A stretch of DNA of 64,000 nt from Deltaproteobacteria bacterium (GTDB lineage Bacteria > Myxococcota_A > Polyangia > Polyangiales > JADJMO01). This document shows, one piece after another, positions 2,175 to 17,101 of this stretch. The translations under genes and the position numbers were made by a program. How positions within the stretch are numbered: the first letter of the stretch is position 1; each line of letters starts with the position of its first letter. A model generated the notes under the pieces. It saw only the letters and a list, made by a program, of their open reading frames with translations, did not search any database and had not been told where the DNA came from. The stretch covers positions 30,190 to 94,189 of the forward strand of contig JACPFM010000026.1 of the NCBI GenBank assembly GCA_016182965.1. Reading direction: 5' to 3'.

Positions 2175-2246
2175 GGCCCCATCGTCTAGCGGTTAGGACA
2201 TCGGCCTCTCACGCCGGTAACACGGGTTCAAGTCCCGTTGGGGTCG
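2175..2246 (+). tRNA. tRNA-Glu (anticodon CTC)
   Basis: A 72-nt cloverleaf: acceptor GGCCCCA/TGGGGTC, anticodon loop CTCTCAC, T arm ACGGG-TTCAAGT-CCCGT. It aligns with the canonical tRNA-Glu layout. The 3' end now reads GTCGCTA rather than GTCGCCA. Confidence 0.85.
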
Positions 2247-2247
2247 C
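2224..2247 (+). repeat. attL: direct repeat GGGTTCAAGTCCCGTTGGGGTCGC inside the intact tRNA-Glu
   Basis: Exact 24/24 match to 15682-15705. Confidence 0.85.
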
Positions 2248-3847
2248 TATCAGTAATGAACAGAGGGCCGAGCGCGGCAGATCCCTGGATCTGGAAGCGG
2301 CGGCCCTCTGAGCTTTCCAGCGGCGCGAACGTCAGCGGCCCGTCCAACAGCGCTTCGAGGACGCGGCGCGCCTCCGCGGGGTTGCGGTCCACAAGGCCGC
2401 GCAGGTCGTCGAGACGCTGACGCGCCTCGCGCTCCATGCGGCGCACTTCGAGGCTGAGCGCTCCCGGCGCTGCGCGCGATGCGCGGAGATCCGCTTCGAG
2501 CGTCGCGACGCGCTTTTCGCGCTCGCCGATCGCGCGAAGCACCGCGCCGGGCTGCTCGCCGCCCGCCATCGCGAGCACAGACACGAGGCGATCAATCTCG
2601 GCGCGCAGCGTCCGGATCTCGGCCTCGGCCTGAGGACCGCGCGCGTCCGCAGTCCTCGCCCGCGTTTCGAGGCGGCGGCGCACCTCGCGGAGCGTCTCGA
2701 CGATCAGCGACTCGCGGAGCACGTTCTCGCGGATCCACGACAGCACCGCGTGATCGACGTGCTCGACCGGGCGCGCGATCGCGTTCGCGCAGACGGCGGC
2801 GCCTCGCACGCGGCGCCACGAGCACACGTAGACCTTGATCGTCTCTCGGCCCGAACGCCCGTTGACCGCTTGGATCGGACCGCCGCACGTTGCGCAGCGC
2901 GCGAGCCCGGAGAGCATGTAGCGAGCCGGCGGCCCCTTGGCACCGATGCGTCCGGTGATGCGCTTCAAGCACTCGATCTTCGCCTGCACCGCGCCCCACA
3001 GCTCTTCGTCGACGATCCGCAGTTCGGGGCGATCGACGCGGGTCCATTCGGACTCGTCGCGCGCGACGTGGACCTTCGTGCCGCCGCGGTACGCTTTGCC
3101 GAGGCGTCCCCAGATCAAGATCCCGCGGTACCGATCACGGCGGAGCATCTCGCGGATCCCGTTCGGGCACCACGAGCGCGTCCCGCGCCGTCCCGCACGC
3201 GGCGACGGCACGCCACGATCGTTCAGCGACTTGCAGATCGCGCGGAGCCCCTGCCCCTCGGCGAAGCGCCGGAAGATCTCGCGGACCACCTCGGCCTCGC
3301 GCTCGTTGATCGCGTAGTCGACGGCGACACGCCGCGCGCCGTCCATGATGGGCACGTTGTCATACCCGAACACGCGGCCGCCCGCGTTCAGGCCCTTGCG
3401 CGCCTTCGTCGCGAGGTGCTCCAGGGTCCGGCCGGCGATCTTCTCGCGCTCCATCTCGGATGCCGCGCTCTGCACGGCGACGACGACCTTCTGCATCGGC
3501 GAGTTGAGCGTCACCTCGTCGTCGGAGAAGTAGAAGAACAGGCGCACGCCGTGCTCGACGAACTCTTGGATCGCGAGCGCGGTCCGGAAGGTGTCGCCGC
3601 CGAGCCGCGATTCGTCGCGGACAACGATCGCGTCGAACGCCCGTGCCTCCGCGGCCGCGCGCAGCGAGTTGAACGCGTGACGCTTGACGAACTCGGACCG
3701 GCTTACGCCGTCGTCGACGAACACGTGCGAGGGGTCGAGCGTCCATCCCTTCGAGGCGATGTAGCGGCGCGCCTCGGCGATCTGCACTTCGAGGGACGCG
3801 GCTTGGTGATCGTCCGTGCTCCGCCTCGCGTAGACCGCTGCGCGCAT
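2228..3847 (-). CDS. large serine recombinase (integrase of the element)
   Basis: N-terminal resolvase domain with catalytic-Ser context (MRAAVYARRSTDD). Recombinase domain, zinc ribbon (CATCGG...VCSW...CAN) and a C-terminal coiled coil. ATG at 3847 is preceded by GGAGG. The stop TGA (2228-2230) lies inside the tRNA/att repeat. Confidence 0.9.
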   Translation of the reverse strand: MRAAVYARRSTDDHQAASLEVQIAEARRYIASKGWTLDPSHVFVDDGVSRSEFVKRHAFNSLRAAAEARAFDAIVVRDESRLGGDTFRTALAIQEFVEHGVRLFFYFSDDEVTLNSPMQKVVVAVQSAASEMEREKIAGRTLEHLATKARKGLNAGGRVFGYDNVPIMDGARRVAVDYAINEREAEVVREIFRRFAEGQGLRAICKSLNDRGVPSPRAGRRGTRSWCPNGIREMLRRDRYRGILIWGRLGKAYRGGTKVHVARDESEWTRVDRPELRIVDEELWGAVQAKIECLKRITGRIGAKGPPARYMLSGLARCATCGGPIQAVNGRSGRETIKVYVCSWRRVRGAAVCANAIARPVEHVDHAVLSWIRENVLRESLIVETLREVRRRLETRARTADARGPQAEAEIRTLRAEIDRLVSVLAMAGGEQPGAVLRAIGEREKRVATLEADLRASRAAPGALSLEVRRMEREARQRLDDLRGLVDRNPAEARRVLEALLDGPLTFAPLESSEGRRFQIQGSAALGPLFITDSDPNGT

Positions 3848-4111
3848 GATCGCTACCTCCGGGGGAAGCGTAGAAGATCGGCGACGAGGAGATCGGCGAG
3901 GCTGACAATCAATGTCCGCACGCGCGGATCGCGGCTGCCGAGCGAGTCGTCCGCCGCGGCGGACCGCCCGGTTTGCGGCGCTGCGTCCGCCGGCGCCCGG
4001 CGCTGCTCCCGCGACGTTCTCGGCACGGCGACAGCTTCGCTGCCGCCGCGCGCTCGCAGGTGTGACGAGAACTTGGCCGCCGCGAGGGGCTCCGGTCACA
4101 CCCTAGATGAC

Positions 4112-4792
4112 GTGGGCGCGGACGAGCTGACTGCCAAAGCCATTCGCGAGCACGCAACCTCGGTGGCACAACTGGCTGAGCAAGCAGGCGTGCTCACGGA
4201 GCTTCGCCTCGGCGTTGCGCGGTTCCTTGTCGCTGGATCGATCGCGCGGCGTGACGCGCGGATCGTCGCCGCGGCGACGAAGGCACCGCGCGCGTGGTCC
4301 GGCGCCGTCGATGCGGCCGAGAAGGCACTCCTCGCTGTGCACGACGCGGCCGGCGCCGAGCCGCCGAGGACTGTCAATCGAGCGTATCGAGCGGTGGTTA
4401 CCGCGCTCGGCGCGTTGCGCGAGGAGGTCGATGTCTGGCGCGTTCGGGAAGCGTCAGTGCCGGCGACGGGCGCTGCCCATCCCTTCTTGGCGGAGGACGC
4501 TGCGGCATTTCTGGACTTGGTACGGAACGGCCTCGGAATCGATCTTTCGCAGTTCGCCGCGCTCATCGTGTGCGGCACGAAGAACAAGCCCTGGTCGCGT
4601 CGGTACCCTTCGCGATCAGCCGAGCAACTTCGATCCGCGCACCGTCGCGCGCACAACGCGTTGCGGAAGATCGCCGCGCGTGGTGGTGCCCTCGAAGACG
4701 TGCAGCACGTCAGCCTGACGCCGGAGGAGGCGCTGGCGCGCGTTCGCGCCTACGTTCGCGGTTCGCCAACGCGCGCTCGCACCGGGGTGTGA
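4112..4792 (+). CDS. hypothetical protein (island)
   Basis: GTG 4112 is the first start after the in-frame stop. It is the C-terminal part of track ORF 2750-4792. The sequence is helical and protein-like, whereas the opposite-strand ORF 4096-4656 is Arg/Ser-rich junk. GC3 is lower than in core genes. Confidence 0.45.
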   Translation: MGADELTAKAIREHATSVAQLAEQAGVLTELRLGVARFLVAGSIARRDARIVAAATKAPRAWSGAVDAAEKALLAVHDAAGAEPPRTVNRAYRAVVTALGALREEVDVWRVREASVPATGAAHPFLAEDAAAFLDLVRNGLGIDLSQFAALIVCGTKNKPWSRRYPSRSAEQLRSAHRRAHNALRKIAARGGALEDVQHVSLTPEEALARVRAYVRGSPTRARTGV

Positions 4793-4908
4793 CGAGCTGG
4801 GCGGCCTCGCGCGGCCGTCCCGTCACACCTCGGCCCGAGCCACGGCCGTAGCGTCAAGTGCGCGCCCGCCGCGCGCTCCTGATCACACGCGGCGGGCCGA
4901 GGAGGAAC

Positions 4909-5166
4909 ATGGCAAGGGTATTTCCGCGAGCCGCGCGCCGCAACGCCGCCCGCCGCAACGTCCAACCTGCTCTCGCGCTGAAGATCGCGATCTGGCGCAG
5001 CGGCCGCCCGCAGTATGAGATCGCGCTCGCCGCCGGCCTCTCTGCCACGACGCTGAGCATGATCGTCGTCGGCCGGCGTCAGACATCGGCATCGGAACGC
5101 CGCCGGATCGCGCGCGCGCTCGGCGTCGCCGTTGGCCGTCTCTTCGGCGCACGGAGGGACGGATGA
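4909..5166 (+). CDS. XRE/Cro-like helix-turn-helix protein
   Basis: ATG 4909 is preceded by GAGGAGG. HTH segment RPQYEIALAAGLSATTLSMIVVGRR. Confidence 0.65.
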   Translation: MARVFPRAARRNAARRNVQPALALKIAIWRSGRPQYEIALAAGLSATTLSMIVVGRRQTSASERRRIARALGVAVGRLFGARRDG

Positions 5167-5636
5167 GCTCGCCGAGGATGCCTTGGGAGTCGACCTACTT
5201 CGCGAAGGTGCCGCTCGGGATCGTCTGCCTCAATCTGACGCCCTCCGAGCGCGAGGTCTATCGCGCCCTCGCGTTTCGTTGCTGGTACAACCGCGAGGAC
5301 ACCGGCGGGTACACGGTCGTCAGCGCCGACCAACTCTCCATCGAGGCTGGGGTGAGCCGGAAGGCGGCGATCAAGGCGCTCGCCGAGCTGCGCGTGCTCG
5401 GGCTCGTGGACCGTGTGCAACTCGGGCCGACCGAGTTCGCGTATGCGTTGCTCGATCTGCCACCTGAGGTGTTCCGTGTCAGCGAGCAGCTCGCACGTCC
5501 CTTCGATCCGCTTCGCACTCGTGCAGGCAAGGCAAGGTTCCGGAAGGCTCTCGAAAGGGCGAAGAATGCCTCCGCTCGGGAGGCACCGGAACGGTTGTCG
5601 CGAGGACGCGAAGCGCCGAGCGACTCTCTCCAATGA
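5163..5636 (+). CDS. winged-helix DNA-binding protein (replication-organiser or regulator-like)
   Basis: ATGA overlap with the upstream HTH gene. Segment VSADQLSIEAGVSRKAAIKALAELRVLGLV is typical of a wHTH. Confidence 0.55.
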   Translation: MSSPRMPWESTYFAKVPLGIVCLNLTPSEREVYRALAFRCWYNREDTGGYTVVSADQLSIEAGVSRKAAIKALAELRVLGLVDRVQLGPTEFAYALLDLPPEVFRVSEQLARPFDPLRTRAGKARFRKALERAKNASAREAPERLSRGREAPSDSLQ

Positions 5637-5840
5637 GCTCTCCCAATCCTCTCGTAAGGAGAGCCCAGCCTCTGCGGGCCCGAAAAGGGCACGCTCCGGG
5701 CCCAAAGGGGGACCGCCGGCGAGCCCGAAAGCGTCACGCGCAACGCTGCCGCGGCGTGCCCCGAACCGGGTCACGCCACGGCGCGCCCGGTCACACCGGG
5801 GGCGGCGAAGCTGTCGATTCGGCCTCGCGCGGGCGCACAC

Positions 5841-6173
5841 TCAGTGCCGAGCACGCCTTCCCGGTTTTCGCGGTCGACCCGCGGCACGTTCGAGCGGCGC
5901 CGTTTTGCGGAGTAGCCGCGCAACGGGCTGACCGAGCGCCTCTGCGATGGCGTGAAGTACCTCGATCGTTGGGTTCGCGCGCGCGGCCTCGATCCGCTGC
6001 AGATGCTTGGGATCGAGCCCGGCGGCGTCGGCCAGATCCTCTTGGGTCATCCCGCGTCGCGTCCTGCCACGCCTTACGTTGGCGGCGATGAACTGGCGAA
6101 GCGTCGGGAGATCCGGGCGAGGCACGCCCGTCGGCCGTATCGGTAGAATCCGATCCGATACACCGCACGACAC
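5841..6173 (-). CDS. XRE-family transcriptional regulator (candidate repressor)
   Basis: RGMTQEDLADAAGLDPKHLQRIEAARANPTIEVLHAIAEAL is a classical HTH_3 pattern. The start is GTG 6173 or the alternative GTG 6125. Confidence 0.8.
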   Translation of the reverse strand: MSCGVSDRILPIRPTGVPRPDLPTLRQFIAANVRRGRTRRGMTQEDLADAAGLDPKHLQRIEAARANPTIEVLHAIAEALGQPVARLLRKTAPLERAAGRPRKPGRRARH

Positions 6174-6247
6174 GGGTAGTTTACGATCGTGCGCCGGACG
6201 GCTGTGTAACGTCGACGAACGCGCTGCACGCGAGAGAGGACGCGGCG

Positions 6248-7159
6248 ATGGCTTCGCAGAAGAGCAGTAGGGGTTCCGGTTGTCTCGGCAGTGGGATCGT
6301 GATCCTCGTCACCGCGGCGGTGCTGGGGAAGTGTGTCTGCGGCCGCGACGCGAAGGAACAAGCCTCGGCGCCGAACGAACCGGCGAAACCGGTGCCGCAG
6401 CCCGTCGCGAAGGCGGCGGTGTCGTCTGCGGCAGGGGCCAGCGGCTCGGCAAGCGCGGCGCCCGCCTCGGCGTTCGACGCGTTGTGGCGCGCCGCAACGT
6501 CTCCCCCGCCGAAGCAGAATTTCGATCAGGTTTTCGCACTGGTGCTGTCGCAGGCCGACTACTGCGCCACGCACGATTGCGGGGACGAGTTCACCCGCGA
6601 GCAGCGGTACAAGGACGCGAAGGAGGCCGCGAAGAAGATCCGCGCGGCGACATGGCGCACGACGCTTCCGGCGGAGAAGGTGGGGCTGCTCTCGGGTCGA
6701 GAAGGATTTGCGATCGGCGAGTTCAACCCCGCGCGCGTCGAGCTGCCGATCGTCCTCGAATGGCCGCGCGCACTGGGCGGGAAGCTCCACCTTGGCGGGC
6801 CTGCCGGCGACGTCGCCACCGACTGCGCCCCCCGGCGACCCGGTATCGAGCGCCTCATGATGCCGAACGGCGAAGCGAACAACTCGTGGGTCAAGTTCAA
6901 GACGACCGAGCTGGCCGTGAAGTTCGCCAGCGTCGACGAAGCGAAGGCTTGGAAGCAGCGTTCCGATAACCCCGCGCTGTTGCAGCTCGTCTTCCGAATC
7001 ACGGACCAAGCCGTCGACATCCGCAAGACGACGCAGAGCGGCGTCACGCTCGATTCGGGAGCGGGCGGTCTAGCGATCGTGCAGGTGCTCGGCGCTCGGC
7101 TGTTGGACGGATCGCGCGTGCTCGCGGGGAAGCCCACCGGACCGGCGCCCACGAAGTAG
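6248..7159 (+). CDS. hypothetical membrane-anchored protein
   Basis: N-terminal hydrophobic segment GSGIVILVTAAVLGKCVC, then a Pro/Ala-rich linker. No family recognised. Confidence 0.55.
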   Translation: MASQKSSRGSGCLGSGIVILVTAAVLGKCVCGRDAKEQASAPNEPAKPVPQPVAKAAVSSAAGASGSASAAPASAFDALWRAATSPPPKQNFDQVFALVLSQADYCATHDCGDEFTREQRYKDAKEAAKKIRAATWRTTLPAEKVGLLSGREGFAIGEFNPARVELPIVLEWPRALGGKLHLGGPAGDVATDCAPRRPGIERLMMPNGEANNSWVKFKTTELAVKFASVDEAKAWKQRSDNPALLQLVFRITDQAVDIRKTTQSGVTLDSGAGGLAIVQVLGARLLDGSRVLAGKPTGPAPTK

Positions 7160-7296
7160 GCGGCGGATGCCCGTCTGCCGCGACGGCTGCGCTCGATCGG
7201 ATACACCGCCCGAAGCGGGTGGTTTCCTTCCCGCGCGCTCGCACCGCGTGTACCCTCGCGCGTGCGTCGACGCGGCGAGCGACAGGAGAACTCGGG

Positions 7297-7848
7297 ATGG
7301 CGAGGAGCAGCACGCAGCCTGGACCGCAGCCACACACCTCCGCAACGTGGTCTCGCGATCCATCGCGGTGGACGGGCCTCGTGATGGTCCTCGCCGTCGC
7401 GGCAGCTGACTGCGGGCGTAACGCGGCCCCGTCGGTCGAATCGTCAGCGCGCTCGCCGTCTGCCTGCCCACCGTGTCCGTCCGTGGCGCCGAGCGCGGCC
7501 GCGGCGTCCACCTCTCCACCGGCGGCGCCCGCAGCAGCCGGCGATTTCGAGGTGCGCTACCCCACGATCGACGCGTTCGTGTCGTCGATGATTGAGGGCG
7601 GGCACAAGGTGACCCGACGTAAGAACTCGGACGGCTCTTCGGGGCAGTTCTTCCTCGTCTATCCCGGCGTGGTCGAGGGCGAGAAGCTGACACTCGATGG
7701 CAGGAGCGTAGACTGCTGGCTCTACGACAGTCGTGCGCAGTGGGAGAAGCTCGATCACTGGCTCGACGTTCAAGTGGCCCAGATGAAGGGCTGGATTCCG
7801 AAGAAGGCGCAGGTAACCGTCTTCGGGAACGTCAAGTGCACCGGGTAG
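7297..7848 (+). CDS. hypothetical lipoprotein-like protein
   Basis: ATG 7297 is preceded by AGGAG. Hydrophobic segment LVMVLAVAAADCG has a lipobox-like Cys. Confidence 0.5.
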   Translation: MARSSTQPGPQPHTSATWSRDPSRWTGLVMVLAVAAADCGRNAAPSVESSARSPSACPPCPSVAPSAAAASTSPPAAPAAAGDFEVRYPTIDAFVSSMIEGGHKVTRRKNSDGSSGQFFLVYPGVVEGEKLTLDGRSVDCWLYDSRAQWEKLDHWLDVQVAQMKGWIPKKAQVTVFGNVKCTG

Positions 7849-7996
7849 GTGGGGCCGCCGGGCTCGATCCGCGTCTCGACGTGGCGGTAGCGAAGATCTG
7901 GCGCGAACAGATCTGGCGCGGCGGCGTCTCGGTTCCACACTTGAAGGCGTGAACGAACCGAGACGGCACACCGCAATCGCGTGGAGGGCGTGAGCC

Positions 7997-8485
7997 ATGC
8001 CGCGCCGATGCTCGGTCTGCGACCATGCCGCGCGAGACGAGATCGATCGCGCGCTGATCTCCGGTGAACCGTTCCGGAACATAGCGGAACGGTTCGCCGG
8101 GCTCACGGCCGCTTCGATCCATCGGCACCGTCACGGGCACCTCACGGCCGCGGTTCGTCACGCGCGCGAGGCCGAAGACGTCCAACGCGGCGCGACGCTG
8201 CTCGATCAGGTCCGCGCACTGCACGCGCGGACACTGCGGCTGCTCGCGAAGGCCGAGGCCGAGGACGACGCGCCGACCGCGCTGCGAGCGCTACGCGAGG
8301 CACGCGCCGGGTTGGAGTTGCTGGCGAAGCTGCTCGGCGAACTGGACACGGCGCCCACGGTGACCGTATCGCTCGGCACGGAGTGGGCCTCGCTGCGTAC
8401 CGCCATCCTGCGCGCGCTCGAACCGTTCCCGGACGCGAGGAGCGCCGTCGCGCAAGCGATTGCACGGAGTGCCGATGCGAGCTGA
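7997..8485 (+). CDS. small-terminase-like / phage DNA-binding protein
   Basis: N-terminal MPRRCSVCDH...ISGEPFRNIAERFAGLTAASIHRHRHGHL (Cys pair plus HTH), then a coiled-coil-like tail. It sits directly upstream of, and overlaps, the large-terminase ATPase gene. Confidence 0.5.
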   Translation: MPRRCSVCDHAARDEIDRALISGEPFRNIAERFAGLTAASIHRHRHGHLTAAVRHAREAEDVQRGATLLDQVRALHARTLRLLAKAEAEDDAPTALRALREARAGLELLAKLLGELDTAPTVTVSLGTEWASLRTAILRALEPFPDARSAVAQAIARSADAS

Positions 8486-9248
8486 CGCCCGGGCGGATCT
8501 TCGCCACGCCCTCGATCCCGCGGCCTTCGCGATCGAGGCGCTCGGCATCACGCCCGACCCCTGGCAGCACTCGTTCCTTCGCTCGACCGCGCGACGGCAG
8601 ATCCTGCTCTGCTCGCGGCAGTCCGGGAAGTCCACCGTCGCGGCGATCGCGGCGCTGCACCGGGCGCTCTTCTACCCTCAGTCACTCGTGCTGGTCGTGT
8701 CCCCTTCGATCCGGCAGTCGGGCGAGCTGTTCCGGAAAATCGTCCACCACGTGACCCGCTTGGCTGTCGCGCCGGACCTATCCGAGGAGTCGCGACTGTC
8801 GATGCGCCTCGCGAACGGATCGCGCGTCCTCTCGCTGCCGTCGAGCCCCGAGACGATCCGCGGGTTCTCGGCGGCGTCGCTCGTGATCGAGGACGAGGCC
8901 GCGTTCGTCGACGATGACTGCTACGTCGCCATTCGCCCGATGTTGGCCGTCAGCAAGGGCAGACTCGTGCTCATGAGCACCCCGTTTGGCAGGAGGGGGC
9001 ATTTCTACAGGGAGTGGTCGTCGGGCGGGGGGCAGTGGGAACGGTTCTCCGTGACCGCCGCACAGTGCCCGCGGATCTCGCCGGAGTTCCTTGCCGAAGA
9101 GCGGGAGAGCCTCGGGGCTTGGCGATGGTTGCAGGAGTACGGAGCCGAGTTCGTCGAGTCGGACGATCAGCTTTTCGCGATCGACTTGGTGCAGGCCGCG
9201 ATCGCATCCGATGTCGAGCCCCTCCTTTTCGGTCTGGCCCATGCATAG
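8475..9248 (+). CDS. terminase large subunit, ATPase domain only
   Basis: Walker A (LLCSRQSGKSTV), Walker B (ASLVIEDEAAFV), coupling motif (LMSTP). The ORF stops at TAG 9246-9248, just before the nuclease domain. Confidence 0.8.
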   Translation: MRADARADLRHALDPAAFAIEALGITPDPWQHSFLRSTARRQILLCSRQSGKSTVAAIAALHRALFYPQSLVLVVSPSIRQSGELFRKIVHHVTRLAVAPDLSEESRLSMRLANGSRVLSLPSSPETIRGFSAASLVIEDEAAFVDDDCYVAIRPMLAVSKGRLVLMSTPFGRRGHFYREWSSGGGQWERFSVTAAQCPRISPEFLAEERESLGAWRWLQEYGAEFVESDDQLFAIDLVQAAIASDVEPLLFGLAHA

Positions 9249-9981
9249 CTTCTGCACCGGCGTCGATCTCGGGCAGGCGCGCGACCACACGGCGATCGTC
9301 ATCGTCGAGCGCGTGACGGGCTCGCCCGAGACCTATCACGTGCGCCATGCGGAGCGGCCGCCTCTGGGCACCGCGTACCCTGCCGTGGTCTCACGCGTGG
9401 CGTCGATCCTCGCGTCGGCGCCGATGTGCGGCGTGTCGTCGCTCGTCGTCGACGCAAGCGGGGTCGGTCGGCCCGTGGTCGATCTCTTCGTCGCCGCGGG
9501 GCTTCGGCCGATCGGCGTGACGATCACGGCCGGCGCGACGGCGAGCGGCGGCGGCACGGAGCACCGCGTCCCGAAGCGCGATCTCTGCGCGCTGCTCCAG
9601 GTCCTTTTGCAGGGCCGGCGCCTAAGGATCGCCGCGGCGATGGCCGAGCGCGCGGCGCTCGTCGAAGAGCTGCTCGCCTTCCGCGTGAAGATTGACGGCG
9701 CGACCGCGCGCGATTCGTACGGCGCCGGCAGCGGGACGCACGACGATCTCGTGATGGCGTTGGCGCTGGCCTGTTGGGGCGCGCGCGAGGCTCCGGCGCC
9801 GCTTCCCGTCGCCGGCCTCTCCGAAGCGTATCAGAGCGACGAGGACGACCCTTGGGACTTCGGATGGGTCCTCGGGACGTCGCGGCCCGTGACGCGCGCG
9901 GAGCGCGCGCCGCGCACGATCCCAGGAGCGGCCGGCGCGCCGCCCAACCCTCGGCCACCGCCGCCCTACGTCGTTCGATAG
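9241..9981 (+). CDS. terminase large subunit, RNase H-like nuclease domain only
   Basis: GVDLGQARDHTAIVIV and GTHDDLVMALALA match the acidic catalytic strands of terminase nuclease domains. ATG 9241 overlaps the upstream stop (ATGCATAG). Confidence 0.75.
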   Translation: MHSFCTGVDLGQARDHTAIVIVERVTGSPETYHVRHAERPPLGTAYPAVVSRVASILASAPMCGVSSLVVDASGVGRPVVDLFVAAGLRPIGVTITAGATASGGGTEHRVPKRDLCALLQVLLQGRRLRIAAAMAERAALVEELLAFRVKIDGATARDSYGAGSGTHDDLVMALALACWGAREAPAPLPVAGLSEAYQSDEDDPWDFGWVLGTSRPVTRAERAPRTIPGAAGAPPNPRPPPPYVVR

Positions 9982-10103
9982 GCGACCGGCGTCGTGCGCG
10001 AGGCCGATCGTGTTCGCGGACCGAACGGTTGGCGAACAAAGCCGGGGGCGCACGCCGCGTCATGACGCGCGTTGGCCGGCGGGTTGCATTGCCGGGGGCA
10101 CCT

Positions 10104-10346
10104 ATGTCGAGAGCGTCACGACCCAAGACCGCTCGTCGCATCTCGCCGCTCGGTGCGCTGCGCCTGTATGACCCTGACGGCTGGGCACGCGAGGTCCGAC
10201 GCGCGATGCGCGGCGCGGGCGGCCGCGTCCCTGCCGCAGCGGAGGCGCTCGGCATCTCCACGCGTCAACTGTTTCGCTGGCTCGACGATCCGGCGCTCGC
10301 AAACGTCGAGCGCGCCGCGGTCGGTACGCGCCCGGACGGCGACTGA
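10104..10346 (+). CDS. small HTH protein (candidate excisionase / recombination directionality factor)
   Basis: 80 aa. The segment AAEALGISTRQLFRWLDDP is HTH-like. Located between the terminase and resolvase genes. Confidence 0.5.
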   Translation: MSRASRPKTARRISPLGALRLYDPDGWAREVRRAMRGAGGRVPAAAEALGISTRQLFRWLDDPALANVERAAVGTRPDGD

Positions 10347-10368
10347 TCGCTAGATCGTGCATACATAC

Positions 10369-10536
10369 GACACGCGTGTCACAGGTTGCGGCGATGGCCG
10401 ATTCCCCGACGTATTCGGGCCGTTGCACGAGCGGTTACGCGCGCGCACGGGGGCACGCGCGACACGCGTGTCATAGCTTGCCCGCGCAGCGGGCCGAGCG
10501 TCCACGATCCAACCTGCGCCATGCGTGTCACAGGTT
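10369..10536 (+). promoter_or_regulatory. three res-like / operator repeats upstream of the resolvase gene
   Basis: The perfect 12-bp palindrome GACACGCGTGTC occurs at 10369-10380 and 10461-10472. A degenerate third copy lies within the inverted repeat AACCTG-N14-CAGGTT (10511-10536). The shared unit is ACGCGTGTCAYAGSTT. Confidence 0.55.
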
Positions 10537-10565
10537 CGGCATGTGTCGTGCACCATGCTCGGGCC

Positions 10566-11261
10566 ATGTCGCGTCGCCCCGCTTCCGACCCCGGCTTTGC
10601 CGTCGCCTACCTCCGCGTTTCGACGGAAGCGCAGGAGCTTGGTCCCGAGGCGCAGCGCGCCGCGATCGAGCGCTGGGCCGCAGCGCAGGGCGTCGCCGTC
10701 GTCGCGTGGTTCGAGGATCACGGCGTCAGCGGCGCAACGGCGCTGGACGAGCGCCCCGGCCTCCTCGCGGCCCTCGCCGCGCTCCGCGACCGCCGCGCGG
10801 GCGTGCTCGTTGCAGCGAAGCGCGATCGCATCGCGCGCGACGTCGTGATCGCCGCGATGGTCGAGCGCGCCGCGAAGGCCGCCGGCGCGACCCTCCGCAC
10901 GGCGGACGGTGCGAGCGACTCGGCGGGCCCGGAGGGGGCTCTCATGTCTGGGATCGTCGACGTGTTCGCCCAGTATGAGCGCGCCCTCATCCGCAGCCGT
11001 ACGAAGGCGGCGCTCGCGGCGAAGAGCGCGAAGGGTGAGCGCGTTGGGACGGTGCCGTTCGGCTTCGCGCTCGCCGCTGACGGCCGCTCGCTTGTTGGCA
11101 ATGAGGCTGAGCAGGCCGTGATCGCGGAGGCGCGGGCGCTCCGCGCAGCCGGGCTGACGGTGCGCGCGATCGCCGCGGCGCTCGACGCGAAGGGGCTCCG
11201 GTCGCGGAAGGGAACCGCGTTCGGGATCGCGCAGGTGCACGCGATGGCGTGCGCGGCGTGA
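10566..11261 (+). CDS. small serine recombinase (resolvase/invertase family)
   Basis: FAVAYLRVSTEAQ catalytic-Ser motif, VAAKRDRIARD, and a C-terminal HTH (GLTVRAIAAALDAKG). Confidence 0.85.
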   Translation: MSRRPASDPGFAVAYLRVSTEAQELGPEAQRAAIERWAAAQGVAVVAWFEDHGVSGATALDERPGLLAALAALRDRRAGVLVAAKRDRIARDVVIAAMVERAAKAAGATLRTADGASDSAGPEGALMSGIVDVFAQYERALIRSRTKAALAAKSAKGERVGTVPFGFALAADGRSLVGNEAEQAVIAEARALRAAGLTVRAIAAALDAKGLRSRKGTAFGIAQVHAMACAA

Positions 11262-11312
11262 CGCTCACGTCGTTGACACGGCGCCCCTCGTGCTTACACG
11301 AGAGGGACTCGA

Positions 11313-11537
11313 ATGCTCGACGAAGCTCACGAACTGCTCCAGCTCGCACAGCTGCAACTCGATCGTCTTCGTGGGTTCCCGGAGGCGTCCGAGAAGCAGC
11401 GGAGTGAGATCGCGGGAAGCGCGGTGAACTTGCTCCGGAACGCCCGCAAGCTCCCTTCGATGTCGCCCGAGCACAGGACGCGCGCCGAGGAGATCGAGAA
11501 GGCCGTGCGGGCGGAAGCTCCGACGTCCGCGACGTGA
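11313..11537 (+). CDS. small helical hypothetical protein
   Basis: 74-aa ORF with a plausible helical sequence. No family recognised. Confidence 0.35.
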   Translation: MLDEAHELLQLAQLQLDRLRGFPEASEKQRSEIAGSAVNLLRNARKLPSMSPEHRTRAEEIEKAVRAEAPTSAT

Positions 11538-11945
11538 GGAGCAGCGCGCGTCAAGCACCGTGACGGCGTTTCGGTGCTCAGGTTCGCTGGCATAGGTGTG
11601 CCGGGCCCGGTACGCTGTATCGCGCAAGCGATTGCGCCGACGGACGGGCGTCGGGGCGTTCCGCGCCGCTCGGTGTGTCTTCGCGCAGTCCGCGTAGGTA
11701 CACGGCGGCGCGATCGGCACCGGACGTCACTCGGTCGCAAAAATAGAGGAAAGCAGGGTGCGCCGCGCGGACGCTTCACCCTGCCTTCACGAGCTGGTCT
11801 AGCACGCGACGGTGCTCCACGGAACGGCCGCGGCTCAAAAGCTCAGGTCGGGCGGCTCAACCATGGCCGCCGGCGGCGACCTCAGGCAACGAGCGCGACG
11901 GGGATGCCTGAGCCGAAAACGTCGGCGATCCGACGATCCACAACC

Positions 11946-11971
11946 GGTCCGAACCCCTTGGGGTCGCCACG
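11946..11971 (+). repeat. degenerate third copy of a tRNA-Glu-like 3' end (internal att-like remnant)
   Basis: GGTCCGAACCCCTTGGGGTCGCCACG. It shares TTGGGGTCGCCACG exactly with 15696-15709 and is likewise followed by a hairpin and T-run. No tRNA 5' half lies upstream. Confidence 0.6.
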
Positions 11972-12014
11972 GAAGCCCCTGGATTTCAAGCAAATCCGGG
12001 GCTTCTGCCTTTTT
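11972..12014 (+). terminator. rho-independent terminator-like hairpin
   Basis: GAAGCCCCTGG...CCGGGGCTTC stem followed by TTTTT (12010-12014). Confidence 0.55.
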
Positions 12015-12145
12015 GTGGTCCGAAATTCGGTCCAGGAAGAGCCCTCGGCAGTCCGGTCATCACACGGAACGCGGGATGACGCCGAGGTGCACGCGCCTCG
12101 CGCGGCCGCGGCGACATGTCGAGGGCCGCTCCGGCGCGCCGCTCG

Positions 12146-13063
12146 TCAACTCCCGATGTCGATCTTTGCCGCCGCACGGAGCCTGACCTCGAGCGCGGCG
12201 ATGAACGTATCGCGTCGTACCTTGGCCATGCCGTTCTTCACCGAGAGCGCGTCGAACGCGCGTGCAGTTCCGACGATCTTCGTCGCACGAAGCAGCCACC
12301 ACTGCCCTTTGGCGTCGACGACCGGGCCGGAGACCTGGCCGGGCCTGCGAAGCGCGAGCGCCGCACGAATCACGGCCTCGTCGCGCGCGGAGTGTTCGTC
12401 GACGACCCCGAGATCGCCGGCCATGGACTTCGACGAGTCGATGGACTCCGCCGCCACGAGGGCGCCGAACGCCTCGGACGTCGAGCCCCAGGCCTTGCTC
12501 GCCAGCGCGTCGGCGCGAGACGCCTCGGTGACGACCAGCGCCTGGACCTGCACCCCTTCGACCTTCACGAAGTCCTCGGGGTGCGCGTCGAAGAACGCCC
12601 GGGCCTCGGCGTCGGTGATGGCGTCACGCTGCGAGGCCGCTGTCTTCAGCTCTGCCGCGATCAGCGCCTGCGACAGCTCGGCATCACCGCCCCCCGCGAG
12701 GCCGCGACGTCGGGCCTCGCGGGCGAACAGGCGAGCGCGAATCAGCTCGTCGAGCGCACGGCGTCGTGGCTCCGCCCGCGGAGCGTCGATGGGGATCACG
12801 GGCGCGCGGACGAGCGCGTCGACCGAGGCCGCGGCGATGGGCTCCCCGTCGACGCAGGCCGCCACCGCGCGGTTGGGAGTGCATGGGAGCGTCGGCCGCG
12901 AGCAGCCTACGAGCAACGCACACGCGAGGAGCCGAGCGGTGAGCGACCTTACGGGACGACCGGCGCCGACGCTCCCGGCGGAGCGTCGATGGGAATCACT
13001 AGATGCACTTGCCGATGGTCGACCACCAGAAATCGTCGTCGGCCTCCCAATACTCGTCGCCAC
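12146..13063 (-). CDS. parvulin-type peptidyl-prolyl isomerase (SurA/PrsA-like) lipoprotein; start unresolved
   Basis: C-terminal PPIase-like region (MAGDLGVVDEHS...GQVSGPVVDAKGQWWLLR). Lipobox LLACALLVGC. No ATG/GTG/TTG lies between the upstream stop (12999) and the lipobox. Candidate starts are GTG 13063 and TTG 12916. Confidence 0.6.
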   Translation of the reverse strand: MATSIGRPTTISGGRPSASASSDSHRRSAGSVGAGRPVRSLTARLLACALLVGCSRPTLPCTPNRAVAACVDGEPIAAASVDALVRAPVIPIDAPRAEPRRRALDELIRARLFAREARRRGLAGGGDAELSQALIAAELKTAASQRDAITDAEARAFFDAHPEDFVKVEGVQVQALVVTEASRADALASKAWGSTSEAFGALVAAESIDSSKSMAGDLGVVDEHSARDEAVIRAALALRRPGQVSGPVVDAKGQWWLLRATKIVGTARAFDALSVKNGMAKVRRDTFIAALEVRLRAAAKIDIGS

Positions 13064-13916
13064 AGTTGCCGTCCCCCGGGTTCGTCGACCCACCGTGGAT
13101 CCTTCCGCAGCGATCGTGATCGAGGCAGTCGTACGTGTAGCCAGCGCCGGTGCACCCCGGGCCGCATTTGCCCAGGCAGTCGGTGGAGTACTTCCCGGCG
13201 TAGACACTCTCGCCCGACAAGCAGTGGCCTGAGGAGTCGTGCACCGCCCAGGAGTTCGCGTTGCAGCGAATGTACCAGATACCGTCCTCGTTGCTTTGGT
13301 TGCAGAAGTTCGCCTCCGAGCCAACCGCCGTGGTGGGCGCGCCGGTGGCGTCGACACACTTGCCGTCCTTGGCCGCCGCGATCGCCTCCTCCTCCGACGT
13401 CGGCATTCCGGGCACCGGGGCCTTCACCCCGGTCTTGATGACGGGCGGACCGAGATCGCGCGCCGGCATCGTCAGCCCCGCAGGCGCCTCGGACCAGAAC
13501 CACACACGGCGGACGAGCAGGTCCTCGTGGATGGAGGCGGTCTGTCCCTCGGGGAAGATCGGATTGAGCGCCGCGCTGAACGCCTTGAGGGTCTCGAGCT
13601 CGTCGGCGTACAGCGCGCCGTCGTGGCCGTCCCAGTGCAGTCTCTGGGCCGCGGCGTCGAGCGACGCGTCGAACACCACGCCGTTCACCTCGAGGTGCAG
13701 CACGGCGTGCGCAGGCGCGTCCGTGCGCGTGGAGAACTTCAGCATCGAGGCGCCGTGGGAGAACGTCCCGGCGAACGACGACTCGGTGCGCTCGGAGATC
13801 TGGAGCGCCCCCTGCGTCGCGCTCGTCGACGAGGGCGCGTCCGACGGCGCGATGCATCCACCCATGGGGACCGCAACCAGGACGGCGACCACTGCCACGA
13901 GGGAGAATCGGTTCAT
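12999..13916 (-). CDS. secreted lipoprotein with Cys-rich C-terminal domain
   Basis: MNRFSLVAVVAVLVAVPMGGC signal plus lipobox. The C-terminus is dense in Cys (CLGKCGPGCTGAGYTYDCLDHDRCG...GNCGDEYW). Confidence 0.6.
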   Translation of the reverse strand: MNRFSLVAVVAVLVAVPMGGCIAPSDAPSSTSATQGALQISERTESSFAGTFSHGASMLKFSTRTDAPAHAVLHLEVNGVVFDASLDAAAQRLHWDGHDGALYADELETLKAFSAALNPIFPEGQTASIHEDLLVRRVWFWSEAPAGLTMPARDLGPPVIKTGVKAPVPGMPTSEEEAIAAAKDGKCVDATGAPTTAVGSEANFCNQSNEDGIWYIRCNANSWAVHDSSGHCLSGESVYAGKYSTDCLGKCGPGCTGAGYTYDCLDHDRCGRIHGGSTNPGDGNCGDEYWEADDDFWWSTIGKCI

Positions 13917-14041
13917 GCCAGGCAAGCCGAGCAACAACGTTGCCAGGAGCGTGAAACCTCGATTCCTCGTGCATTCCACGTGAGCCGTCCCCCGCCCGGT
14001 TCAGTTTCTTGACGCCGCGTTCAGATTTTTGATCTACCGGT

Positions 14042-15232
14042 TCAGAACCTGAACCGACGACGAGCCATGGCTGCCGCCAGTACGAGCGCCGCGGCGAGGC
14101 CCAGGGGGCGCCCACGCTCCCCGACGACGCAGCCGCCCGACGCGTCGGTCTCAGGCGCACGTGTGGGGCTCGCTCGCAGGCACGGCTCGAAGCAGCGGCA
14201 ACTCGCATCCTCGCCGCTGCTGAACTGCAAGCACGCAGCCCCTCCACAGTCGCTCGCCGAGCCGCAGGCCGCGCCGAAGCGCCCTGCCCGGGGCCCGCGG
14301 TACCCGCAACGTGCGCCGTCGCGCTCCGGCAGGCACGCCATGCCGGCCGGGCAGTCACGCTCGGTCGAACAAGTGTTGGTGCAGAAGTCGGCGGTCGGAT
14401 CGCCGCTACGAGGGGCGGCGACGGACGACAGCTCCGCGATCGCTCCGGCGAGAAACCCCTCGTCGATCATCGTGGCCACGCCGTAGGCCTTGCACGTCGA
14501 GTCTCCGCTCCTCGTGATCGCAACGAGTCGTTCCTCGCCGTCGAGGGTCGCCAGGATCGCCCCGCCCGAGTCGCCCGCGCACACCAGCGCCGGCGCAGGC
14601 TCGAAGCGAATCGTGCCCGCGTCGATCGAGACGAGCTTTGCCGTGCCCGTCGCGCGCGCGCCAATGGCTCCGCCCTCCTCCCAGCGGCCATACCCGACCT
14701 GGCGCACCAGGGTCCCGACAGGCGAGACATCGATCGCCGAACGACGCAGCGGCACGGTCACCGCATCACGCGCGAGCCAGACCACCGCGAGGTCGTTCGC
14801 TCGCGCCGCGGCGTCATAGTCCGGGTGCACCCGGCTCGCGACGACGCGGGCGTGCGTACCACCCCCCAGCCCCACATCCTCGCCGAAGAACACCTCGAGC
14901 TCCTCGGCACGGCGACCCTGGAGGCAGTGCGCGGCGGTGAGAACGGCGCGCGGCGCGACGAGCACCCCCGAACAAAACGTGTCGACCTCACGCCCCTCCG
15001 GACACAGCGTGCGTCGATCGCGTAGGGCGACGACCGCGTGATCGTCCCGCGAGGGCTCGCCGCCGACGATCGGCGACGCTGCCGTGCGCGTGCTCTCGGC
15101 GTCGCCGGCGCAACCACCCAGTTGGAGCCACACGAGCGCGACACAGCCGGCGCAGCCCGCGAGGCGCGCGCGCTGCAGCATGACGCCGGCGCGAGGGTCG
15201 GCGTTGCCGCGGCGCGGAGTCGACTCCGTCAT
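14042..15232 (-). CDS. trypsin-like (S1) serine protease with MYXO-CTERM-type sorting tail
   Basis: IVGG start of the mature protease, LTAAHC (His), GDSGG (Ser). Cys-rich linker. Tail GGCVVGERGRPLGLAAALVLAAAMARRRFRF. The start is ATG 15232 or 15181. Confidence 0.8.
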   Translation of the reverse strand: MTESTPRRGNADPRAGVMLQRARLAGCAGCVALVWLQLGGCAGDAESTRTAASPIVGGEPSRDDHAVVALRDRRTLCPEGREVDTFCSGVLVAPRAVLTAAHCLQGRRAEELEVFFGEDVGLGGGTHARVVASRVHPDYDAAARANDLAVVWLARDAVTVPLRRSAIDVSPVGTLVRQVGYGRWEEGGAIGARATGTAKLVSIDAGTIRFEPAPALVCAGDSGGAILATLDGEERLVAITRSGDSTCKAYGVATMIDEGFLAGAIAELSSVAAPRSGDPTADFCTNTCSTERDCPAGMACLPERDGARCGYRGPRAGRFGAACGSASDCGGAACLQFSSGEDASCRCFEPCLRASPTRAPETDASGGCVVGERGRPLGLAAALVLAAAMARRRFRF

Positions 15233-15681
15233 CACCGAGAGGTTACGAGCGCCGAGGCGCGGCGGCCAACACGTGCTCGGCCACGACACGAAGGCAGCGC
15301 ACCGCATCGTCGGAAGCCGCCCTACCCGCCCGACATCGCGGAAGCAGCTCGCACCGCCTGGGATTCCATCAGGTCGATGGGGCGGCCGATCGTCCAGACG
15401 ATGTCTGGACACTCTTGTCCGCGAGGCTCCCCAGCGATTGTCGAGACGGCGTCCGGAGATCTCGCGGTACGCGAGGTAGAGGCCGCGCATCTGGTGGAGA
15501 TTCGGAGATTCGAGCGACCGAAGCCACGATCGAAGCGTCGGGTGAGATCGGCGGCGCCCTGGCCCAACGAGCTGGCCCATGCTCGCGTAGTCGCGAGCTT
15601 ACGCGCGCGATATCGCACGAACCACCGCGATCGTTGCCGCCAATTCCATGCGCTCAAGCGCGGATCCCAGCAGAATTTGGT

Positions 15682-15705
15682 GGGTTCAAGTCCCGTTGGG
15701 GTCGC
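15682..15705 (+). repeat. attR: second copy of GGGTTCAAGTCCCGTTGGGGTCGC
   Basis: Exact copy of 2224-2247. It continues as ...GTCGCCA (encoded CCA). No tRNA 5' half lies upstream. Confidence 0.85.
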
Positions 15706-15710
15706 CACGA

Positions 15711-15749
15711 AGCCCTCTGATCAATGCGGTCAGAGGGCTTTCGCCTTTT
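15711..15749 (+). terminator. rho-independent terminator-like hairpin (probably the native tRNA-Glu terminator)
   Basis: AGCCCTCTGA / TCAGAGGGCT stem followed by CTTTTG. Confidence 0.55.
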
Positions 15750-15816
15750 GTTCGTCGGCGCGCTCCGGGCGACGGGCGGGGAAGCTCTCGGGCGAGCGCG
15801 AGGGGTCAGCCGTAGC

Positions 15817-16881
15817 TCATGGCTTCCCGCGTCCCTTCTTCGCGCGGGTAGGCGCCGGCTTCTGGAGCAGCTTCGCCGTCGCCTCGAACGCGGCGTCGAT
15901 CGCGCGAGGCTTCGCGTCCTGGAGGGCCTGGTAGCGATCGTACTCCCGCTCGGCCCTCGCCTTCGCGACCTCCGCCGAGATGGTCCCGGCGTGATCGAGC
16001 AGCTTGCGGCCCGAGGCCTTCAGGAACTCGTCGAGCTTGTCGACCCAACCGCGCATGGTCATCGGCTTGCGCTCGAGCGCCTGCAGCTCGGCGAACTCGA
16101 TGTAGAGGTTCACGATGCGGTGGAGCACCTGCAGCTCCGGCTCGGTCAGGTAGTTCTTGGCGATCGCGGCGTCGCCCTTGCGGACCACACCTCCGGGTCG
16201 CGTCGTCTGCATGCCCATGAAGGGTTTGTCGCCGTCGGCGCGCTCGTGGACGATCTCGGCGGCGGTGTGCCCGTGCGCGGCCCAGTGCATCTTGTTCTGC
16301 ACCGTGGCGAAGAACTGCTGCGAGAGATCGTTGTCGGGCTGGTAGTCGACGCTGGTCGCGTAGATGTCGAGGACCTTCTGGTAGAAGCGGCGCTCGGACG
16401 CGCGGATGTCGCGAATCCGCTCGAGCAGCTCGTCGAAGTAGTCGGTGTGGCCTGGACCGGGCGGGTTCTTGAGCCGCTCGTCGTCCATGGTGAAGCCCTT
16501 GACCAGGTACTCCGCCAGGCGCGCGTTGGCCCACTTGCGGAACTGCGTGCCGCGATGGCTGCGGACGCGGAAGCCGACGGCGAGGATCGCCTCGAGGCTG
16601 TAGTAGCGCAGAGTGCGCGAGACCTGGCGGGCGCCCTCGGTTCGAACCTGTAAGAACGGCTTACAAGTTGCCGACTCGTTGAGCTCGCCGTCGGCGTAGA
16701 TCTCGCGCAGGTGCTGCGTGATGTTCTGTGGCGTCGTCTGGAACAGCTCGGCGATCAGGGCCTGCGTCAGCCAGACGGTCTCGCCCTCGAAGCGGCACTC
16801 GATGCGCGTGCGGCCGTCTTCGGTCTGGTAGATGAGCAGCTCGCCTTTGGGGGTGTCGTTGGTCGAGTTCTTCTCCGTCAT
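15817..16881 (-). CDS. RhuM-family virulence/defence-associated protein
   Basis: The sequence pattern (ELLIYQTEDG...RIECRFEGETVWLTQ...FRVRSHRGTQFRKWAN...DERLKNP) matches what I recall of the RhuM family. The alternative ATG is 16908. Confidence 0.7.
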   Translation of the reverse strand: MTEKNSTNDTPKGELLIYQTEDGRTRIECRFEGETVWLTQALIAELFQTTPQNITQHLREIYADGELNESATCKPFLQVRTEGARQVSRTLRYYSLEAILAVGFRVRSHRGTQFRKWANARLAEYLVKGFTMDDERLKNPPGPGHTDYFDELLERIRDIRASERRFYQKVLDIYATSVDYQPDNDLSQQFFATVQNKMHWAAHGHTAAEIVHERADGDKPFMGMQTTRPGGVVRKGDAAIAKNYLTEPELQVLHRIVNLYIEFAELQALERKPMTMRGWVDKLDEFLKASGRKLLDHAGTISAEVAKARAEREYDRYQALQDAKPRAIDAAFEATAKLLQKPAPTRAKKGRGKP

Positions 16882-17101
16882 GGCCAATCCGTTGGTAGTG
16901 GCCGCCATCCCTTCACGGGGCTGCCGCTATTGAAAGCGAAGAGCTCCGCGCGCGGAATATCGACGTAAACGACGTCATCGACGTCAGGCTCGATGAGCAG
17001 ACAGAGGTTACGCTACCAGCGCTCGCGCGGCGGGCAATCAACTACCGACGTGGGCCGAGGCTATTGAGGGCGCTTTGACGTAGGGCCTGCTCGTCGGCAC
17101 G

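Follow-up and report, generated by a model that had tools for sequence, protein, structure and literature searches.

A 9.7-kb island at a myxobacterial tRNA-Glu gene, probably a helper-dependent phage satellite with its own two-gene terminase

The window analysed here, a 64,000-nt stretch of a draft myxobacterial genome (G000:C29:30190-94189; 9.6 Mb, 226 contigs, 70% G+C), contains a 9.72-kb element, hereafter element A, which is site-specifically integrated in the 3' end of a tRNA-Glu gene beside a large serine integrase (positions 2238-11967). Judged from its genes, element A is probably a phage satellite that depends on a helper and encodes its terminase itself. This reading is the most economical one because a terminase can do nothing unless a procapsid with a portal is available, and none of the genes conserved throughout the family could provide one. 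The initial annotation had described a satellite-like set of regulators, a TerS-like protein, a large terminase subunit (TerL) and two recombinases; this gene set was confirmed, and the satellite reading is supported at the level of genomics, from which we infer dependence on a helper. Its further statement that only packaging specificity is carried understates the gene content, as a whole terminase (TerS-like protein, ATPase and nuclease) is present. Genes were called from codon-position G+C together with homology, since chance open reading frames (ORFs) are plentiful at 70% G+C.

The packaging module consists of three overlapping genes:

7997-8485, plus strand: TerS-like protein, 162 aa, with a CxxC..H and helix-turn-helix (HTH) N-terminus followed by a long helical hairpin
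8475-9248, plus strand: TerL ATPase subunit, 257 aa (Terminase_6N, 2e-13; phrog_7579, 5e-62)
9241-9981, plus strand: TerL nuclease subunit, 246 aa, in a cistron of its own (phrog_27743, 1.6e-38)

The ATPase subunit carries Walker A (SRQSGKST), Walker B (LVIEDE) and coupling (MSTP) motifs, matches the ATPase domains of T4 gp17 and P74-26 TerL in PDB sequence searches, and, aligned with the TerL of Thermus phage Riverbug (417 aa), shows 52% identity over residues 7-235 of that protein; identity to the TerL of Meiothermus phage MMP17 is 49%. The nuclease subunit aligns to residues 250-404 of the Riverbug protein, with weak PDB matches to the G20c and P74-26 nuclease domains, and its acidic triad (GVDLG..D, VVDASG, HDD) is intact. 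The terminase motifs were read from the translations and assigned by comparison with those of gp17. The two halves meet at ATGCATAG, where the nuclease ATG (9241) overlaps the ATPase stop codon (TAG, 9246-9248) in another frame. The corresponding junctions of two related elements, both carried by a genome of the same family and another genus (G007), are ATGGCTAG (L009) and ATGA (L010). The window and L009 have a frame relation of +1, L010 one of -1, and the nuclease begins M-x-S-F-x-x-G-V-D-L-G in all three. A programmed frameshift joining the halves was considered and rejected, as the frame relation differs and each junction has its own ATG overlapping the stop. Because this relation differs among the three elements, a shared frameshift error, a pseudogene and a conserved programmed slip are all excluded. 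Read from these junctions, TerL is a pair of separately translated cistrons with coupled translation, an ATPase motor followed by an RNase-H-like nuclease; the terminase noted in the initial annotation is therefore present, not as domains of one gene but as two separately started, overlapping cistrons.

The division is not peculiar to the window. Two-gene TerL is kept in L009, L010, the Methylocystis element L023 and the contigs L029-L031, and the same split occurs in Alphaproteobacteria, in archaeal metagenome-assembled genomes (MAGs) and in IMG/VR contigs. The best 120 of 5,334 homologue clusters at E<=1e-20 were all 247-305 aa long. In a library of 1.84 billion representatives, 1,344 TerL ATPase clusters were retrieved at E<=1e-30, and among the best 150 of these representatives approximately 122 (about 80%) were short and 28 measured at least 415 aa. 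By the lengths of these homologues, a split TerL is the rule in this terminase clade. The one-chain form is found in Thermus and Meiothermus phages, beside portal and head genes. When 50,697 phage genomes were searched by tblastn with the nuclease subunit, nothing matched at 1e-5. In the one IMG/VR contig that was annotated (L042), two-gene TerL lies beside SPP1-type portal, minor capsid and capsid genes; by its gene content this contig looks like a complete head-tailed virus, and two-piece terminases therefore appear to serve real viruses. The IMG/VR contigs retrieved with the TerL profile have the look of viruses, not of satellites, and give no evidence for satellites in virions.

Several observations on this gene pair are recorded in their own right. 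Three alphaproteobacterial MAG contigs (L021, L022, L024) have the ATPase gene followed by two consecutive nuclease-domain genes in different frames, so that the nuclease subunit appears duplicated there. Two-gene TerL was also seen in the archaeal MAG contigs L026 and L027 (Methanotrichaceae / Methanosarcinales, a host assignment made by binning alone) and in the IMG/VR contigs L036-L043; archaeal MAG and IMG/VR contigs have approximately 48-51% G+C.

The TerS-like gene overlaps the start of the ATPase gene by 11 nt in the window, and a gene of this kind stands upstream of the ATPase gene in every relative where one was found. Its product shares 45% identity with the protein encoded just upstream of the Riverbug TerL gene, and 37% with the one so placed in MMP17. 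Homologues form 642 clusters of approximately 160 aa with no Pfam domain, annotated as hypothetical in the source, and the protein itself had no match in Pfam, PHROGs, NCBIfam or PDB sequence searches. Its AF2 model (pLDDT 76) gave no significant PDB match in a fold search and weak matches in BFVD; the best E was 4.6e-3, and some matches at E 0.4-1.3 were to entries labelled 'terminase small subunit'. Position, size and architecture make TerS a well-motivated candidate assignment. In the related element L030, two proteins (8765-9523 and 15139-15936) end in a segment of approximately 50 aa like the N-terminal CxxC/HTH domain of the TerS-like protein; a CxxC/HTH module, presumably DNA-binding, is therefore duplicated within that element.

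The boundaries of element A were set by the following features:

2175-2247, plus strand: tRNA-Glu(CTC), the integration target (ARAGORN; Rfam tRNA, 61 bits)
2228-3847, minus strand: large serine recombinase (LSR), the integrase, 539 aa (Pfam Resolvase, Recombinase and Zn_ribbon_recom; phrog_95, 3e-87)
2238-2247, plus strand: attL core TTGGGGTCGC, in the 3' acceptor strand of tRNA-Glu, from the alignment of attL and attR of the window and L031
11958-11967, plus strand: attR core TTGGGGTCGC, preceded by an element-side arm conserved in L031

The LSR has catalytic, recombinase and zinc-ribbon domains, its stop codon is a TGA in the T-loop of tRNA-Glu, and the 10-bp core TTGGGGTCGC occurs at both junctions. 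The last 24 nt of tRNA-Glu (2224-2247) are repeated exactly at 15682-15705 (chance expectation 0 in the repeat and pattern search), and this distal copy runs on as ...CCA into a terminator hairpin. An empty site is seen in a genome of the same genus (G001, contig C325), with tRNA-Gln, an intact tRNA-Glu, a terminator and no insertion, relative to which the whole insertion spans 2248-15681 (13.4 kb). A third piece resembling a tRNA 3' end with terminator lies inside it, at 11944-12015. The nearest relative, L031, is a 10.9-kb Logan contig that begins within the same tRNA-Glu; it represents a second, independent insertion at this gene, with an LSR 93% identical to that of the window, and bears the same tRNA-3'-end-like piece 9.9 kb downstream. 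In both the window and L031, attL and attR have the common core TTGGGGTC(G/A)C, and in the alignment the element-side arms are conserved at both ends, the arm CAGTAATGAACAGAGGGCCGAGCGCGG following directly on the attL core, with outer flanks of host type. On the 3' side of the attR core, host-type tRNA 3' flank and a terminator hairpin extend to approximately 12015 and resemble the flank of the empty site in G001. Element A was defined as 2238-11967 because these cores and element-side arms are common to the window and L031. Treating the whole 13.4-kb insertion as a single element was rejected, since L031 has both element-side arms 9.9 kb apart, and the range of the initial annotation, 3848-11537, proved too narrow, omitting the large serine integrase. 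The remaining 3.7 kb, from attR of element A to the second exact copy of the tRNA-Glu 3' end (11968-15681, minus strand), contain no integrase and are probably the remnant of an older island, outside the satellite.

A separate observation concerns an unrelated LSR (27% identity) adjoining the distal tRNA-Met repeat by the G007 element (L009 2295-2315), which also ends at a T-loop TGA. Within this bacterial family, tRNA-targeting LSRs placed in tandem with further islands seem to be a repeated pattern.

Structural genes were sought with sequence profiles alone (Pfam, PHROGs, NCBIfam and PADLOC); in element A, these four libraries gave nothing from capsid, portal, protease, scaffold, tail or lysis families. 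Over the whole insertion (2248-15681), no major capsid, protease, portal, head-tail adaptor, connector or HNH gene was detected; Pfam, PHROGs and NCBIfam gave no capsid-size-redirection gene; and tblastn with the structural proteins of Riverbug matched contigs C4 and C164 of the same genome, with no match in the window. At the level of these searches, the only packaging or virion functions detected in element A are the TerS-like protein and the two-part TerL. Four ORFs are without family assignment:

4112-4792, plus strand: orf4112, 226 aa, weak coding signal (third-position G+C, GC3, 0.75), no family match
6248-7159, plus strand: orf6248, 303 aa, conserved, no family match
7219-7848 (start 7219 or 7297), plus strand: small ORF with a hydrophobic N-terminal stretch, no family match
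11313-11537, plus strand: orf11313, 74 aa, 50% identical to an L009 gene in the same position, no family match

To the initial annotation none of these ORFs looked structural, and at the sequence level none of them (orf4112, orf6248, the ORF at 7219/7297-7848, orf11313) had a structural or lysis match in the four libraries. orf6248 is the first gene of the packaging operon in a Myxococcota subgroup, with homologues in the same position in L031 (82%), L009 (45%) and L010 (47%) and dN/dS of 0.23-0.5. It has an N-terminal hydrophobic helix, an Ala/Ser-rich linker and a conserved domain of approximately 200 aa, and its AF2 model, from a three-sequence alignment, had a pLDDT of 35 and no usable fold. 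orf4112 shows 34% identity over 50 aa to L031 1928-2536 and could be an accessory or directionality factor. The small ORF at 7219/7297-7848 has no counterpart in L009, L010 or L031 and is probably island-specific accessory cargo.

These ORFs bear on the idea that the element is a self-sufficient vehicle, whose capsid went unrecognised in orf6248 or another ORF, or which is served by a particle of the host resembling a gene transfer agent or by an encapsulin-like shell. Four ORFs with no detectable homology leave room for it, as do the conservation of orf6248 in the Myxococcota subgroup, its co-transcription with the terminase genes there and a structure that could not be predicted. Beyond the TerS-like and the two TerL genes, however, nothing is conserved family-wide; the hydrophobic helix and low-complexity linker of orf6248 are unlike HK97-fold capsid proteins; and the terminase requires a portal vertex, for which 9.7 kb offer no candidate of adequate size. 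We regard such a vehicle as quite improbable.

Islands conserved in other genomes, which the initial annotation had named as a mark of a functional satellite, were found, with the same layout across phyla; element A is one member of a sizeable family. The relatives within Myxococcota, from other genomes or assemblies, have TerL identities of 60-84% and the same gene order, and two close relatives have exact att repeats. L009 measures 10.0 kb between exact 44-nt tRNA-Met repeats spaced 9,999 bp apart; its genes run from a tyrosine integrase through an HTH protein, a RepA-like ATPase, an XRE regulator and the orf6248 homologue to TerS, ATPase, nuclease, HTH protein, resolvase and the orf11313 homologue. 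L010, in the same genome, has different replication and integrase genes around the same core. In Methylocystis sp. JAN1, the 10.19-kb element L023 at tRNA-Val comprises a tyrosine integrase, Prim-Pol, AAA_25, TerS, ATPase, nuclease (with an ATGA overlap) and three unknowns. Eight members on long contigs (L029, L030, L031, L050-L054), drawn from the top of the homologue list, come from Thermovorax, Armatimonadota, Clostridia and four JGI metagenome contigs, besides L031. All eight are integrase-bounded islands of approximately 8-13 kb between housekeeping genes; each has the TerS-ATPase-nuclease trio and one or another replication gene, and none has a capsid or portal Pfam match. Family-wide conservation is limited to this trio; integrase and replication modules are swapped freely, and L023, L029 and L030 have an unrelated gene in the position upstream of TerS.

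Between closer pairs, dN/dS was 0.14-0.3 for TerS, both TerL halves, the XRE and HTH regulators and the resolvase, rough values given that dS nears saturation in distant pairs and codon usage is biased at 70% G+C. By this measure, the shared genes are under purifying selection. The alternative raised in the initial annotation, a decayed prophage whose structural genes were deleted and whose remainder is slowly eroding, could draw on the integrase-less, remnant-like tail (11968-15681), the weak coding signal of orf4112 and the minimal replication module. It fails on the other evidence: every listed ORF of element A is uninterrupted from start to stop, the terminase catalytic motifs are kept, dN/dS is low, the split of TerL is a conserved two-cistron design, and independent genomes and phyla show the same compact architecture with exact att repeats. 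The island is not unique and not degenerate, and conservation, purifying selection, exact att sites and modular exchange together rule out a decaying prophage for practical purposes; we attach almost no probability to it.

The remaining genes and sites of element A include a repressor-type switch and no more than a minimal initiator of replication:

4858-5166, plus strand: HTH_3 regulator, 102 aa (Pfam HTH_3, 3e-6; PHROG repressor families)
5163-5636, plus strand: winged-helix (wHTH) protein, 157 aa (phrog_8102, replication initiation, 6.5e-6; DnaD-like and O-like families weaker)
5841-6173, minus strand: XRE/CI-like repressor, 110 aa (HTH_3, 6e-14)
10101-10346, plus strand: small HTH protein, 81 aa (HTH_23 and HTH_8, both weak)
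10360-10387, 10455-10479 and 10512-10536, no strand: res-like site made up of an imperfect 24-bp palindrome, ACCTAYGACACG|CGTGTCAYAGGT, in triplicate
10566-11261, plus strand: small serine recombinase (resolvase), 231 aa (Pfam Resolvase, 2.5e-34)
11556-11808, no strand: conserved non-coding stretch near the right end, 71% identical to L031 7790-8025

The HTH_3 regulator is 64% identical to its L009 counterpart, the XRE repressor 76% identical in L031 (dN/dS 0.16) and the small HTH protein 78% identical in L009 (dN/dS 0.14). The HTH genes had been described as divergent; the two HTH genes are in fact mutually convergent, and it is the XRE gene, on the minus strand, that diverges from the orf6248-TerS-TerL operon. 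No AlpA or HTH_17 gene was found in the window; HTH_17 genes are present in relatives. The wHTH protein is a putative minimal Rep, similar to the N-terminal domain with which phage replication initiators bind DNA; its slot holds AAA_25, Prim-Pol, AEP or DNA_pol_A genes in relatives, and no iterons or origin above chance were found near the gene.

The resolvase is 82-87% identical in L009 (dN/dS 0.16). Its start, placed at 10386 in the initial annotation, was corrected to the ATG at 10566, the stretch between holding three repeated palindromes. The triple palindrome lies between the small HTH gene and the resolvase start, and an equivalent three-copy arrangement precedes the L009 resolvase. This layout is that of a resolvase res site and suggests resolution of multimers or concatemers. 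Near the right end, an invariant block of approximately 45 nt (11740-11785; L031 ~7960-8005) forms a predicted hairpin, GCAGGGTG...CACCCTGC, followed by a T-rich run on the minus strand; the stretch 11556-11808 has no Rfam match and could be a candidate pac site, origin, terminator or small RNA.

Outside element A, the window begins with housekeeping genes, and the tail carries genes of another kind:

1-618: release-factor gene, left flank, housekeeping
623-1960: PQQ-repeat protein, left flank, housekeeping
2058-2129: tRNA-Gln, left flank
12146-13357: PPIC-type PPIase-like gene, tail (Pfam Rotamase_2)
12999-13979: Cys-rich secreted protein, tail
14042-15580: trypsin-like protease, tail (Pfam Trypsin)

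The two tRNAs were the sole matches of the Rfam scan. The cluster of trypsin-like protease, Cys-rich secreted protein and PPIC-type PPIase-like gene exists in three paralogous copies in the genome, on contigs C38 (~44-48.5 kb) and C204 (~46-50 kb) and in the tail of the tRNA-Glu insertion. Just outside the distal tRNA-Glu repeat lies a RhuM-family gene (15817-16908, minus strand; Pfam Virulence_RhuM, 1e-109), which matches PDC-S05, a candidate defence family of PADLOC (3e-142). Mobile and defence genes seem to gather at the tRNA-Glu locus, which has the look of a hotspot.

If element A is a satellite, virions would have to come from a helper. Two related myovirus prophages occur in the same genome, on C4 (~75-100 kb) and C164 (~30-57 kb), and resemble Riverbug in portal (34-36% identity), prohead protease (58-59%), sheath (38%) and baseplate wedge (41-47%). 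They are candidate resident helpers by this likeness. Their own TerS and TerL have no match to the island TerL at E<=1e-4, and the Walker A motif of the C164 TerL differs from that of the island. Docking of the island terminase on the C4/C164 portal is plausible by analogy, because this portal lineage partners this terminase lineage in Riverbug. A C4-type portal is also present in G001 and G240. Two details of these prophages are noted apart from this question: in both, a ParB-nuclease/DNA-methylase gene stands upstream of the prophage's TerS, and the TerL region of C4 (96.1-97.7 kb) gave no clean ORF by the codon filter.

Several points weigh against the satellite reading. Helper, induction and packaging are predictions from gene content. 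G007 and the Methylocystis genome gave no C4-type portal at E<=1e-10, and co-occurrence thus lends no signal; with carrier genomes lacking such a portal, helpers may be exogenous. The elements are rare in the phylum, at two of 401 sampled genomes including this one, G007 having come from a separate search for relatives. TerS is a putative assignment, made from position and architecture. The replication module is weak, a 157-aa wHTH protein with neither helicase nor primase, and no AlpA-type or SOS-independent derepression partner was identified for element A. One of the eight long-contig members, L030, has a PhageMin_Tail-domain protein, and a novel structural role for orf6248 or orf4112 is formally conceivable.

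The main rival to the satellite reading is a stationary island for defence or interference, in which the terminase module is kept to sabotage the packaging of invading-phage DNA, by competing for procapsids or cutting phage concatemers, and so shields the host population, capsid spread being incidental or absent. Such a role would suit the missing co-occurrence with a helper and the adjoining hotspot with its PDC-S05/RhuM candidate defence gene, and published work on satellites, PMC10085698 included, describes functional overlap between satellites and defence islands. Against it, PADLOC gave no convincing match among the proteins of element A, and the three-gene module is found with many integrases, replication modules and att sites across phyla, which indicates frequent horizontal transfer of a unit of approximately 10 kb. 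Sizes cluster tightly around 10 kb, as a packaging constraint would predict, and interference and transfer go together in known satellites. A purely defensive island is accordingly judged unlikely, although less so than a self-sufficient vehicle.

For the preferred reading, that of a helper-dependent satellite, the following course can be proposed. Helper-phage infection or induction would relieve the XRE repressor; the LSR, with a directionality factor, would excise the element, which would then replicate. The TerS-like protein would recognise the element's own pac site, and the two-piece TerL would dock on helper-made procapsids and fill them with element DNA, probably by headful packaging of concatemers, each made of ~10-kb units. 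Once in a recipient, concatemers or multimers would be reduced to circular monomers by the resolvase at the res site with its three subsites, and the LSR would integrate these monomers into tRNA-Glu. Taken jointly, these steps would amount to a distinct, cross-phylum class of satellites that steals only empty procapsids and tails; that supplies its entire packaging machine itself, with a two-polypeptide TerL and a new TerS family; and that, in the myxobacterial branch, uses a resolvase/res system to reduce headful-packaged concatemers to single copies on arrival. We give this combined picture an even chance of being right as a whole.

If mobilised as proposed, these elements would represent a widespread satellite strategy, own terminase and borrowed shells, between phage-inducible chromosomal islands (PICIs) on the one side and capsid-forming PICIs (cf-PICIs) on the other, and would extend satellites to Myxococcota and many environmental phyla beyond the reach of current satellite finders. 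No paper on this family was found in the open-access and bioRxiv literature, and full-text searches of the same sources brought up nothing pertinent on terminases that are split or in two genes, or on Myxococcota satellites; within that literature, this would be the first satellite type reported for the phylum. It would also be a natural experiment showing that terminase motor and nuclease can work as separate chains, the conserved split of TerL offering a ready system for studying motor-nuclease coupling at the portal. The hypothesis is directly testable, since carriers are available in culture, namely Methylocystis sp. JAN1 (NZ_CP181499.1) and Thermovorax subterraneus (GCA_021608145.1), as is the phage relative Riverbug.

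Four satellite families were defined for SatelliteFinder, among which terL is a core gene only in cf-PICIs; PICIs carry only TerS, or Rpp, and use the TerL of the helper (PMC10085698). With PICIs, including the Staphylococcus aureus pathogenicity islands (SaPIs), element A shares the site-specific island of approximately 10 kb, the integrase at one end, repressor-like regulators, a putative replication module, a packaging module with a candidate TerS, no detected capsid, tail or lysis genes, and the exchange of integrase and replication genes among relatives (PMC10085698). It differs in having a whole terminase (TerS-like protein, TerL ATPase and TerL nuclease) instead of TerS alone, a large serine recombinase as integrase and a resolvase/res module, with no AlpA or capsid-size-redirection gene detected; some of the hosts of its family (Myxococcota, Alphaproteobacteria, Firmicutes and others) belong to taxa from which PICIs have not been reported. 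The resolvase module is like those of Tn3/gamma-delta (resolvase-res) and, in cyclisation, P1 (Cre-lox), in that a small serine recombinase gene follows three binding-site-like palindromes, as in Tn3/gamma-delta; element A has its own subsite spacing (92 and 57 bp) and sequences, and the role proposed is resolution of multimers or concatemers.

cf-PICIs are alike in encoding their own TerS and TerL, independent of the helper terminase (10.1101/2022.09.08.507074; PMC10085698). They have genes, too, for capsid protein, protease, portal, head-tail adaptor, connector and HNH. No such gene was detected in element A, whose TerL is in two genes and of a different lineage (T4/Thermus-phage type, Terminase_6N). 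PICMIs and VEIMEs, marine satellites of minimal size that are packaged as concatemers (PMC9618062), are likewise small and capsid-less, and the model proposed here is headful packaging of concatemers into helper capsids of full size; they have at most TerS or a 'motor-like ATPase', and in the passages considered none is described as having a complete two-gene TerL with a TerS-like gene. More broadly, the portions of the sources considered attribute TerS, capsid genes or 'motor-like ATPases' to VEIMEs, PICMIs, tycheposons and EPIPs, and describe no complete terminase in a capsid-less element. The closest terminases are those of Riverbug, MMP7 and MMP17, within the type of T4 gp17 and P74-26: the Thermus and Meiothermus phages show 49-52% identity in the ATPase domain, the same upstream TerS-like gene (37-45%) and the same Walker A, Walker B and nuclease motifs. 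The TerL of these phages is a single chain of 415-417 aa, with portal and head genes behind it; in element A a stop/start overlap takes the place of the linker, and downstream there are no head genes.

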